From Candidatus Multivoradales bacterium (GTDB taxonomy: Bacteria; Acidobacteriota; Thermoanaerobaculia; Multivoradales; Multivoraceae), in the NCBI GenBank assembly GCA_965223325.1, contig CBDCWI010000002.1, positions 32,001-96,000 of the forward strand: DNA of 64,000 nt. Reading direction: 5' to 3'. The notes beneath the pieces were generated by a model. It had not been told where the DNA came from and searched no databases. It saw only the letters and a list, made by a program, of their open reading frames with translations. Numbering within the stretch: position 1 is the stretch's first letter; every line of letters starts with the position of its first letter. Position numbers and translations under genes: made by a program. This document shows, piece after piece, positions 31,729-51,535 of the stretch.

Positions 31729-32778
31729 TCAGACCTCGATCGCGGCCGCTGGGCGCAGTTTCTGCCAGCTCGCCTGGCGGCGCAGTTCGCGTGCACGGGC
31801 GGCGATCGTTCGGCCGGTATCGCGTTGCCAGGCCAGGCGCACGGGCTCGGCGACTCGCGCCCAGTGCTGCTCGTGGTCGCGGCGGGTGGCGGCGACCGCA
31901 CGATCGAAGCCCGCGACGGCCAGGTGAGTGCTTGCGGCGTGCGGATCGCAGTCAGCCAGGGCGACCGCTGCGACGAGCAGGTGCAGAAGCTCTTCGTGGG
32001 CTTCTTCCGGCCATTCGAACTCAACGGCCCGTCGCAGGGTGTAGGCGAGAAGGGCAGCGGCGATATAGAGATCTTCGATGAGCCGGAATGGTTTGACTCC
32101 CGCCAGCCAACCGTCGCCATCCCAGACCTCCTCTGTTTGGACTTCGACCCCGTCGAGGGTGATGATGGCGTGCTCGATCTCGGGTTGTACGGCATGGTCT
32201 GAGTCAGAGTCCCGAGAGTCGGAGTCCATGGGCGTGATGTCGATGCCGGAACGGTCCGTCGGCACCACGGCCAGGCGCAGCTGGTTGCGGCCGAACACCC
32301 AACCCTCCGTCGCCAGCACCACCAGCCAGTCGGCGGCTGGCGCCAACGTTGCCCAGCGCTTTTCGCCGTCGAGCACCAGTCCGGTCCCGTCGGCGTGGGG
32401 TGCGGCCGTCAGGCTGGTCTTGATGGTGCGCGGGTGGGCGCCCCGGTCTTCGGTGGCACACATGGCATAGAGGTCACTCCCAGGCCGCCGTCCCAGCACA
32501 CGGCAGATGGCATGTTGGTGGCCGGCGAGGGTGGCCCAGGCGACGCGGTCGGCACTGGCGGCGGCAAGAATCGCCCCGACAACAAGCGGGTCATCACTCG
32601 CGGTGTTCGCGGCGGGCTGAAGGGCCCACCAGGCTCGTGGGGCGTCGGGGGCTTCGCGATCAACGAGAGGAGGCGCGCTAGCGGCCGTCCACAGACGGGT
32701 CAACCAGGTTGCGGCGCCCCGGTCCGTGTCGCTCGGGGAGGAGGGCCTGGGTTCTCGGTTGCTAGTACCCCGTACCAT
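31729..32778 (-). CDS. Acyl-CoA dehydrogenase-like protein (5' end interrupted by MITE; inferred native start ATG 32931)
   Basis: 'AMCATE', 'LDGEKRWAT', 'KPFRLIED'; current ATG lies inside the MITE inverted repeat. Confidence 0.7.
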   Translation of the reverse strand: MVRGTSNREPRPSSPSDTDRGAATWLTRLWTAASAPPLVDREAPDAPRAWWALQPAANTASDDPLVVGAILAAASADRVAWATLAGHQHAICRVLGRRPGSDLYAMCATEDRGAHPRTIKTSLTAAPHADGTGLVLDGEKRWATLAPAADWLVVLATEGWVFGRNQLRLAVVPTDRSGIDITPMDSDSRDSDSDHAVQPEIEHAIITLDGVEVQTEEVWDGDGWLAGVKPFRLIEDLYIAAALLAYTLRRAVEFEWPEEAHEELLHLLVAAVALADCDPHAASTHLAVAGFDRAVAATRRDHEQHWARVAEPVRLAWQRDTGRTIAARARELRRQASWQKLRPAAAIEV

Positions 32779-32927
32779 TGGAACGGATAGTGGCTGAGTG
32801 GATGATCGTGCTCGATATCAAGGCGTCACGACGCAGGCATATTGGTGATCTGTCTAGGAGTGACAACGCAGAGATCGAGTGCGAGGAACGCTCAGACGCT
32901 GTGCGGTTCAATGGTACGGGGTACTAG
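32762..32927. mobile_element. MITE copy 1 (166 bp including CTAG ends)
   Basis: Perfect 19-bp terminal IR CTAGTACCCCGTACCATTG / CAATGGTACGGGGTACTAG; close second copy at 51370; empty site reconstructs a SD-ATG gene start. Confidence 0.85.
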
Positions 32928-33045
32928 TCATCGGGGCTCCGGAGGGCGGTACTCGCTCGAGTGTTGCATGTGCCAACAAAGCGACGTCCGAGCGCTATCA
33001 TCCTATGATGCTAGGCGTTCCTCTGGGCCTCGAAGTCGCTGCGAG

Positions 33046-34425
33046 ATGACCGCCCACGACAAAGTCTCCGCCCGTTGGTACGTCGCCTGGACCTTGGTTT
33101 GGCTGGTGGCGACCCTGGGCTTCGCGCTGCTGGTCGCCGGCTGCCAGGTCAAGAGTCTGCCGGCTGAAACAAGGGTAGCCAGGGCGAGCGAAGGCCCGGT
33201 GACGATTCTGCTGGTGACCGTCGAGGGGCTCGGTCCGGCGGCGCTCGCCGACCCCAGGGTGATGCCGTTTCTCGTCGACACTGCGGGTGTCCAGCAGTGG
33301 TCGGTGGCAGTCCTGCCGTGCCCTGATCCGCAGGTGGCGATGGCCGGGATCCTCACCGGCGTCGAACCGTGGCGACTCGGCATTGTCGGTCGACCGTCTG
33401 AGTACCTCTCCGAGCACTACAGGACGCTTCCTGAGATTCTCCGAGACCGTGGCTGGCAAACCACGGCGGTGACCGGTTCCGAGGGTCTTGGTAGTCATGG
33501 TCTGGTGCAGGGAATCGAACGTTCCGACCACTACGACGCGCTGCCGGCGATGTTGGAGGCGCTTCTCAAGTTCGATCCCGAGCGGTCGGTCTTTGCCTGG
33601 GCGCATCTGGCAAGGGCTGCGCCGCCGTGGCGCATCGACCGCGACCGTGCGGCGGCCCTCGAGGCAGCCGGCGCCTTGCCGGTGCCCGCCTCGTCGCTGC
33701 CACGTCGGCTGAGGGCGCAGAATCCTGCGACCTCGAAGCAGAGCGTCCGTCGGCTCGAGCACGCCATGTACCTGAACGGTCTGGCGGTCGTCGATGCGCA
33801 GATCCGTGCGATCAGCGAGGCTGGAGAAAGCCGACTTGCGCACCAGGCGGGCATGGATAGCAGCCGACCGGCGCGCCTGGTCGTCGCGGTGGTGGGAACA
33901 CGAGGAGCCGACTTCGGAGCGCACTCCTCGGTTCCCCAGCGCTCGGCAGCCAACGCGGGCATCCTGGCGCGGCGCGAATCCGTCGAGGTGGTTTATGGGT
34001 CTCTGCCTGGCTCGCTGGCGGAGAGCTCCCTGATCGAGACCGGGGTCCGCCGCTCGACGGACGCGGTTTTCCCGTTGCTGCTCGAGGCTGCCGGAGAGTC
34101 AGTACCGCCGCGCGTCCTGGCGGCTTCTCCGTGGCAGCGCTCCGCATGCGTGACCGACGAGGGCGTGCTCGAGGTCGCTGCCCGACGAGGCGGTCTGCGG
34201 GCGGGCCGCCGGGGTCCCGAAGGCCCGGTGTGGTTCGAAGACTGGGACGATGAGACCTTCATCCCGCCAGCCGTTCCCGGTCAGCGGTTCGCGGCCCACC
34301 TCGAGGTTCTCTCGGCACTCGATGCCGCGATTGCGGCTCCCGGGGTCGGGCGGTCGCTCCCTGAGGACACGACGGCCGCAGAAGCTCGCCAACGCATGGT
34401 GGATGCCGCCGTTCGCAACGAGTGA
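33046..34425 (+). CDS. Sulfatase/alkaline phosphatase-superfamily protein, degenerate; putative lipoprotein
   Basis: 'LLVAGC' lipobox, 'ILLVTVEGL', 'ILTG..P..LG', 'TLPEILRDRGWQT', 'FAWAHL..PPW'. Confidence 0.6.
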   Translation: MTAHDKVSARWYVAWTLVWLVATLGFALLVAGCQVKSLPAETRVARASEGPVTILLVTVEGLGPAALADPRVMPFLVDTAGVQQWSVAVLPCPDPQVAMAGILTGVEPWRLGIVGRPSEYLSEHYRTLPEILRDRGWQTTAVTGSEGLGSHGLVQGIERSDHYDALPAMLEALLKFDPERSVFAWAHLARAAPPWRIDRDRAAALEAAGALPVPASSLPRRLRAQNPATSKQSVRRLEHAMYLNGLAVVDAQIRAISEAGESRLAHQAGMDSSRPARLVVAVVGTRGADFGAHSSVPQRSAANAGILARRESVEVVYGSLPGSLAESSLIETGVRRSTDAVFPLLLEAAGESVPPRVLAASPWQRSACVTDEGVLEVAARRGGLRAGRRGPEGPVWFEDWDDETFIPPAVPGQRFAAHLEVLSALDAAIAAPGVGRSLPEDTTAAEARQRMVDAAVRNE

Positions 34426-51369: not shown

Positions 51370-51535
51370 CTAGTACCCCGTACCATTGAAACGGATAGTG
51401 GCTGGTGGATGATCGTGCTCGAGATCAAGGCGTCACGACGCAGGCATATTGGTGATCTGTCGAGGAGTGATAACACAGAGATCGAGCGCGAGGACCGCGC
51501 AGACGCTGTGCGTTTCAATGGTACGGGGTTACTAG
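51370..51535. mobile_element. MITE copy 2
   Basis: CTAGTACCCCGTACCATTGAAACG ... CGTTTCAATGGTACGGGGT(T)ACTAG; internally similar to 32762-32927. Confidence 0.85.

Follow-up and report, generated by a model that had tools for sequence, protein, structure and literature searches.

The start of an acyl-CoA-dehydrogenase-like gene in Candidatus Multivoradales bacterium carries an inserted MITE, a miniature transposable element with inverted repeats. Both lie in the window, by which is meant the whole 64,000-nucleotide stretch analysed here, positions 32,001 to 96,000 of contig C2 in the genome under study (G000, 6.69 Mb in the two contigs C1 and C2, 98.2% complete). It is probable that the element is a non-autonomous MITE of the IS630/Tc1-mariner type, that it entered codons 2-3 of the gene in a young insertion, and that the ATG which one of its terminal repeats now offers in the gene's frame arose as a by-product of that repeat. 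That the insertion lies in, or just before, the gene start is plain from its position.

Counted with the two flanking CTAGs that bound it (32762-32765 and 32924-32927), the element is 166 bp long (32762..32927, plus being the better-folding strand) and matches the covariance model of the whole element, R1, with 142.9 bits; the net insert is 162 bp. Its terminal 19 bases, CTAGTACCCCGTACCATTG, form a perfect inverted repeat at both ends (left 32762..32780, plus strand; right 32909..32927, minus strand), the arms of which are extendable to 37 nt at 84% complementarity, and a 16-mer of the repeat occurs four times in the window against 0.16 expected. Between the repeats lies the conserved structured core of the element family (32806..32884, plus strand; model R2, 80.1 bits, E 8.7e-21), delimited also by alignment and covariation. 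The RNA of the element is predicted to fold with -94.0 kcal/mol (z -10.7) on the plus strand and -62.8 kcal/mol (z -5.7) on the minus strand. A simple scan of 32600-33150 gave no promoter-like and no terminator-like sites, and Rfam returned nothing relevant at E <= 10 for the window element, nor at E <= 1 for the loci of seven relatives.

On the minus strand, from which the acyl-CoA-dehydrogenase-like gene is read, the element is placed between a ribosome-binding site with its ATG (32929-32940) and the gene body. The site is a GGAG (32937..32940, minus strand) 5 nt upstream of the native ATG (32931-32929), recognised in the sequence and by the statistics of motifs like the Shine-Dalgarno (SD) sequence. 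Behind the ATG the strand reads ACT AGT ACC CCG TAC CAT TGA, an open reading frame (ORF) of seven codons (32908..32931, minus strand) that stops inside the right, near repeat, and the element has stops in all its inward frames. The left, far repeat contains a minus-strand ATG (32778-32776) that opens the longest present ORF of the gene (31729..32778, minus strand, 349 aa), and the right repeat contains an outward plus-strand ATG (32912) in the same frame as the ORF 32842-34425, that of a sulfatase-like neighbour. In mRNA orientation the stop of the short ORF and the AUG of the far repeat lie opposite each other across the predicted stem, and 130 nt apart along the chain. All that the original prediction had stated about the sequence is present at this MITE: the reconstructed GGAG, spacer and ATG, the seven codons now running into one repeat, the two outward ATGs in frame with their neighbours, and the conversion of the start, read from sequence and fold, into a short ORF followed by a hairpin. 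Its placement of the element in codons 2-3 stands as far as the CTAG right after a well-formed ribosome-binding site and ATG is concerned, the codon placement itself being a matter of reconstruction.

A BLAST search of the genome with the element gave 38 near-full copies, of which C2 has 31 and C1 the other 7, and CTAG flanks 33 of the 38 on both sides, a sequence that duplication of TA or of CTAG would yield alike. With R1, 41 matches were obtained, including a diverged tandem neighbour (C2:727621), two truncated copies and one core-only remnant. The studied copy shares 98.8, 98.2 and 97.6% identity with the three copies nearest to it, and no other copy exceeds 95.2%; because of the close identity to those three it is taken to be young, a member of the youngest subgroup. 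According to rough gene calls (5009 genes, 88% coding density), a flanking CTAG provides the TAG stop of an adjacent gene in 24 of the 38 copies. As a control, stop codons make up 809 of the 2428 CTAG sites outside copies and gene interiors, and the copies are enriched on stops (p = 2e-4). At three of the 24 (C2:630555, 997482 and 2196140) convergent genes on both sides end on the flanking CTAGs; before the insertion, each such pair presumably shared one palindromic CTAG as overlapping stops. The orientation relative to the stop-donor gene is random (11 same, 10 opposite), which argues against a simple role of the core in the mRNA of that gene. A cross-genome stop-codon test with 200-nt flanks, in which the three frames were open in 23, 21 and 18 of 44 flanks, respectively, is uninformative in high-GC DNA.

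Mobilisation in trans by an IS630-type enzyme is well supported by sequence comparison with relatives. Four insertion sequences with a DDE_3 transposase were cut out, from genomes G096, G021, G068 and G046 (L186:1419-2571, L187:2281-3422, L188:605-1717 and L189:1-1112), and all four are 1112-1153 bp long, are flanked by CTAG and end their transposase ORF on the TAG of the terminal CTAG. The ends of the G068 insertion sequence match those of MITEs in the same genome at 15 of 15 terminal bases, and for G046 the agreement is 12 of 13 and 11 of 12 bases; in G021 the insertion sequence has the ends of a MITE subgroup present in other metagenome-assembled genomes (MAGs), and the right end of one in G007 matches the G000 repeat at 10 of its first 11 bases. 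Of the 151 genomes examined in the class, 37 (in 22 of 67 genera) contain the element, 47 contain DDE_3 and 18 contain both, so that DDE_3 is present in 18 of 37 element-bearing genomes and in 29 of the 114 others (odds ratio 2.8, p = 0.013, a value overstated by kinship between genomes). Where at least nine matches were listed, 8 of 11 genomes have DDE_3 (p = 0.004, overstated for the same reason), with G000, G090 and G136 as exceptions. In the IS630 family and its MITEs (IS630, IS870, ISY100) one likewise finds a TA target inside CTAG and terminal inverted repeats; a preference of IS630 for TA in CTAG is named in a title in the reference list of PMC2170065, and a passage of PMC13630536 derives the stop codon of IS870 from its CTAG target, as in the insertion sequences of the relatives here. 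The present case differs in that the middle of the MITE is not a piece of the insertion sequences and that no partner transposase was found in G000.

The middle of the element has a distribution of its own. A degenerate 18-base pattern of the core matched at least 116 stretches in genome_contigs (loci L024-L139), the titles of which name MAGs of Thermoanaerobaculia/Acidobacteriota, Gemmatimonadota and Geobacteraceae/Desulfuromonadales and a 'delta proteobacterium', with one chance match in Streptococcus. By the criteria applied, both ends were found in 52 of the 116 and not in the other 64, many of them at contig ends, and the lengths of the two-ended members cluster at 165-168 bp. When 37 diverse members are aligned, their ends prove highly variable but 36 columns, mostly in the core, are invariant, and RNAalifold predicts one long hairpin of 54 pairs, 39 of which show pair-keeping changes on both sides. 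Over the pairs of this hairpin, 161 cells are G-U and 21 are A-C, with the excess seen in every end-type subgroup, and pairing therefore appears to be selected on one strand only; in G000 the same strand folds better in 38 of 38 copies, which share ancestry. When R2 was run on six insertion-sequence loci, the core was found only in MITEs and never inside an insertion sequence: it is not part of IS630 elements. A 12-mer of the core had no match in the bacterial papers searched, and no match came from the files searched among the supplements of the Geobacter genome papers PMC2996986 and PMC2700814 (excluding files 13-15 and 13-19, respectively).

Where the gene originally began decides what the insertion has interrupted. 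The 349-aa ORF contains an Acyl-CoA_dh_M domain (E 5.5e-10), and its orthologs (42-51% identity, 334-350 aa) start with GTG or ATG behind a GGGAG-like site. The start at the native ATG that had been proposed agrees with them in the architecture of the ribosome-binding site and start codon and in length, and, mainly because chance would seldom produce an ATG that is both open and in frame behind a GGAG at a suitable distance, the native ATG appears to be considerably the likelier ancestral start. The alternative is that the gene always started at TTG 32703 (32701..32703, minus strand) or nearby, in which case the element, 58 nt upstream, would occupy the 5' leader or the promoter region, and the GGAG and ATG would be there by chance. 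This we regard as unlikely. The TTG is the choice of a codon-score gene finder and aligns with residue 7 of the orthologs; conservation among these begins exactly at its leucine, which only six residues precede in the orthologs, against about 22 in the gene counted from the native ATG; and the 19 codons from the element to the TTG have a log-odds score of -2.67, between the reference values for coding (mean +3.56, standard deviation 3.16) and upstream sequence (mean -6.80, standard deviation 5.86). From the weak coding score and the conservation that starts at the TTG, it follows that the insertion might lie in a leader and not in the coding region. Yet the TTG has no ribosome-binding site, the open, in-frame GGAG-spacer-ATG mirrors the GGGAG-like site and GTG of the orthologs, a gene counted from the native ATG fits their length, and the third-position GC of the 19 codons is highest in the frame of the gene (0.84, against 0.79 and 0.61 in the other two). 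Unfavourable to the explanation preferred here is that no empty allele was found in the contigs of two samples, in metagenome_contigs or in G001, a genome of the same genus; for this reason the target duplication (TA or CTAG) and the ancestral start are not directly shown, and the evidence for placing the insertion in codons 2-3 consists of the reconstruction, the ribosome-binding site and the ortholog lengths. Contigs of the samples X1 and X3 run into the element from both flanks, with no joint of the flanks among them; an exact 22-mer of the left flank had no match in metagenome_contigs, and the full 19-mer repeat had none in genome_contigs, a collection that may exclude the window's own genome. 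In a flanking gene, G001 shows no more than about 69% identity, and it provides no orthologous empty site because its ortholog of that gene ends at a different TAG; the acyl-CoA-dehydrogenase-like gene was not found in it with the query used. On the same side of the balance stands the missing driver, since G000 has no match to DDE_3 (PF13358) or DDE_Tnp_1 and two IS630-type transposases of relatives match it only at E >= 0.025, which leaves recent mobility without a visible driver in an assembly of this completeness. Nor is there a repeat pair at insertion-sequence spacing anywhere in G000, and we conclude that the partner transposase was either lost from the genome or not assembled. Finally, the gene contexts of the copies depend on home-made calls, based on ORFs together with a model of codon log-odds, for which long ORFs with high third-position GC had served as the training set.

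The original prediction had read more into the repeat, namely that its inward stop and outward ATG are built for gene starts, which they would convert into a leader of short ORF and hairpin with a replacement start codon. Both outward ATGs of the studied copy are indeed open and in frame with their neighbours, and an outward ATG is kept at 68 of 76 element ends. The count over all genomic copies that had been suggested as a check does not bear the idea out: 23 of the 76 ends have ahead of them, within 300 nt and with no other gene intervening, the start of a gene that runs in the same direction, phase is scorable at 20 of them, and 9 of these are in frame, which does not differ from the one third expected (p = 0.19) and largely refutes a design. 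An open, in-frame ATG is found at only 2 of the 23 ends, and these are the two ends of the studied copy, so that 1 of 38 copies is fused. Neither frame coincidence at that copy is remarkable: the xCT|AGx frame, which puts the repeat ATG in phase, accounts for 487 of 2374 CTAGs in predicted genes and for 47 of 111 in the first ten codons, and in about 12% of cases one would expect 45 codons upstream of a gene start to be open and in frame. No SD-like motif precedes the repeat ATG (in calibration, such motifs were present at 630 of 1369 confident starts and 139 of 1366 internal controls), the ATG is base-paired in the basal stem of the predicted -62.8 kcal/mol hairpin, a terminal repeat with an ATG is present in only 4 of 50 non-redundant members of the family taken from other genomes, and the copies are found on stop codons in the proportion given above. 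A purpose-built start is on these grounds extremely unlikely. A rescue peculiar to this locus, in which translation of the seven codons melts the 5' arm or RNase III cuts the stem in the manner of Correia elements, the AUG is exposed and expression comes to depend on the leader, is also improbable, although less starkly so. The short ORF does run through the 5' arm and stops opposite the AUG, Correia hairpins are reported in the abstract of PMC2649163 to bind RNase III, and the acyl-CoA-dehydrogenase-like ORF is intact; against it, the AUG to be rescued has no ribosome-binding site and is remote from the short-ORF stop along the chain, and in so young a copy an intact ORF says little. As for the manner of movement, the element might have travelled as single-stranded DNA by means of a Y1 (HUH) transposase, in the way of a REPIN, and not by an IS630 enzyme. 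Pairing conserved over the full length on one strand, 28 Y1_Tnp matches in G000 next to the absence of DDE_3 and DDE_Tnp_1, and a copy orientation of 29 to 9 along the contigs would agree with this. However, the terminal repeats equal those of the relatives' DDE_3 insertion sequences, Y1_Tnp occurs in 34 of 41 relatives with or without the element and is missing from the element-bearing G039, the two stretches rich in Y1 at the contig ends are free of copies, and the orientation does not flip at the change of GC skew (24:6 in negative-skew and 5:3 in positive-skew regions), all of which make this route very unlikely. Membership in the REPIN/RAYT class was considered separately and rejected: the ends consist of CTAG and 19-bp repeats around one central core, not of a REP pair, and Y1_Tnp does not track the element.

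A close parallel to the element and its core is found in the Correia elements of Neisseria (CREE/NEMIS). According to sections of PMC2649163, these are mostly 153-157 or 104-108 bp long, have a directional conserved core, a TA target and no known transposase, and were in 2009 described as restricted to Neisseria; their 26-bp inverted repeats begin TA-TAGTGGATTAAC (parts of PMC2649163 and PMC5039591). They resemble the present family in size class (153-157 against 165-168 bp), in inverted repeats around a directional core, in the TA target, in the long RNA hairpin and in having no known mobilising enzyme. The elements of relatives begin C-TAGTGGAC.GTAAC, their repeats carrying TAGTGGA..TAAC as the Correia repeat does, whereas the G000 repeat has only fragments of the TAGTA..GTAC type in common with the 26-bp Correia repeat; neither an IHF site nor a promoter was found at the window element in the scan of 32600-33150. 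For comparison, 27 loci with the Correia repeat were taken from viral_contigs, and for the sequences in the supplement of PMC2649163 the comparison was made by eye only. The short Correia form is aligned by R2 over its whole length, with CAAGGCG, GCAG.CA, a small hairpin, AGG and CAACGC colinear. Short Correia elements score 17.9, 16.9 and 15.0 bits with this model (E 0.004-0.025), and the best non-family match in the 64-kb window reaches 13.7 bits. A sequence-only profile (nhmmer) gave E 0.12 on the Correia loci, which is not significant, and R1 reached 26 bits at best, on both strands, which is weak evidence because generic hairpins and palindromes match it too. The sequence resemblance is thus statistically weak and no more than suggestive of kinship with the Correia elements of Neisseria. 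Nothing relevant on Correia-like, CREE-like or NEMIS-like elements was found in the literature searched.

It may be, as a tentative proposal that we hold to be doubtful, that the core of about 80 nt functions as a module in single-stranded form, either as RNA or, during transposition, as DNA, and that it is carried as a passenger of IS630-type MITEs across at least three phyla, shares ancestry with the Correia core and has its ends re-tailored to the local IS630 transposase. The module, and not the terminal ATG, would then be the reason why genes tolerate insertions at their ends and starts; it might, for example, serve as a hairpin for processing or insulation.

Other mobile repeats share single traits with the element. 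ERIC, or MITEEc1, and RUP are IS630-linked hairpin MITEs that are TA-flanked, intergenic and conserved beyond what transposition needs. They are alike in being TA-flanked, hairpin-forming intergenic elements and unlike in sequence, and in the present family the ends vary by lineage while the core is kept across phyla; the ISfinder label MITEEc1_IS630 appears in a part of PMC11602168. The Neisseria REP2 and Borrelia IR repeats also can supply a start codon to a downstream ORF, and a section of PMC3184786 describes them as bringing a promoter and a ribosome-binding site as well as an ATG to genes. By contrast with these repeats, which have a ribosome-binding site and a systematic position before genes in that account, the element described here has no such site, and a single copy is fused. 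Rickettsia palindromic elements are inserted in frame into genes and read through as protein (part of PMC10969869); they too are palindromic elements tolerated inside a coding region, but the present element stops all inward frames and truncates the native start.

Divergent from the acyl-CoA-dehydrogenase-like gene lies a weakly sulfatase-like predicted lipoprotein gene with a probable start at ATG 33046 (33046..34425, plus strand). All of its family matches are far below the cut-offs (sulfatase, 25.8 bits against a cut-off of 481), and a choline-sulfatase in PDB is matched at E 0.002. ATG 33046 stands directly before a hydrophobic stretch ending LVAGC, which we take to be a lipoprotein-type signal peptide, and an N-terminal extension from the repeat ATG would bury this predicted signal. 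Judged by its sequence the neighbour most likely starts at ATG 33046, and the second in-frame ATG at 32912 is for that reason irrelevant. A second copy of the MITE in the window lies between divergent genes (51370..51535, plus strand; R2, 78.2 bits); its right repeat has a one-base insertion, and it makes no in-frame fusion.

Some further observations concern the genome and the family at large. CTAG is about five-fold under-represented in G000, where base composition predicts about 22,000 sites and 4785 are present outside copies, and TAG is the stop codon of 1805 of the 5009 rough gene calls. At C2:727459-727786 two family members stand in tandem with a common CTAG, the second being far more diverged (92.5 against 141.4 bits), and at L186 a MITE abuts the insertion sequence, again with one CTAG common to both. 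The orientation bias of the G000 copies has p = 0.002. GC skew is negative on all of C1 and at C2:0.36-3.5 Mb and positive elsewhere on C2, and it may be that C1, in reversed orientation, and C2 belong to a single chromosome. In G007, which has 150 copies, orientation is 77:73 overall but varies by region, the stretch from 0.97 to 1.86 Mb, for instance, having 27 copies one way and 4 the other; the observed regional split, which was chosen post hoc, was reached in 1 of 300 permutations. Matches to Y1_Tnp (PF01797) cluster at the ends of both contigs (C2:4455510-4486968 and C1:2126128-2143849) in open frames of about 320-350 aa, and these clusters may explain the breaks of the assembly there.

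The course of events that best accounts for the locus would be as follows. A MITE of 162 bp net would have inserted recently at the TA of a CTAG in codons 2-3, so that the ribosome-binding site and ATG were separated from the gene body; the old ATG would now direct translation of a seven-residue peptide that stops in the element, and the long hairpin would stand between the old start and the coding region. The ATG of the far repeat would be a by-product of the CCATTG in G000's version of the terminal repeat and not an adaptation. The gene may now be poorly translated or silent, or may be read at a low level from the repeat ATG or from TTG 32703. The family would simply target CTAG, its copies surviving mostly where a CTAG is harmless, above all at TAG stops at gene ends, and the studied copy would belong to the few that neighbour the start of a gene.

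In itself, a single insertion of this kind is an ordinary mutational event. It has value as a clean negative, as the apparently purposeful 'replacement start codon' vanishes once all copies are counted. The family is of wider interest, with ends that change with the local IS630 transposase and an 80-nt core in which strand-specific pairing is kept. If the link to the Correia elements is true, it would provide material on what moves these elements and what their core is for, with hundreds of genomes that could be compared and IS630 partners that can be identified.

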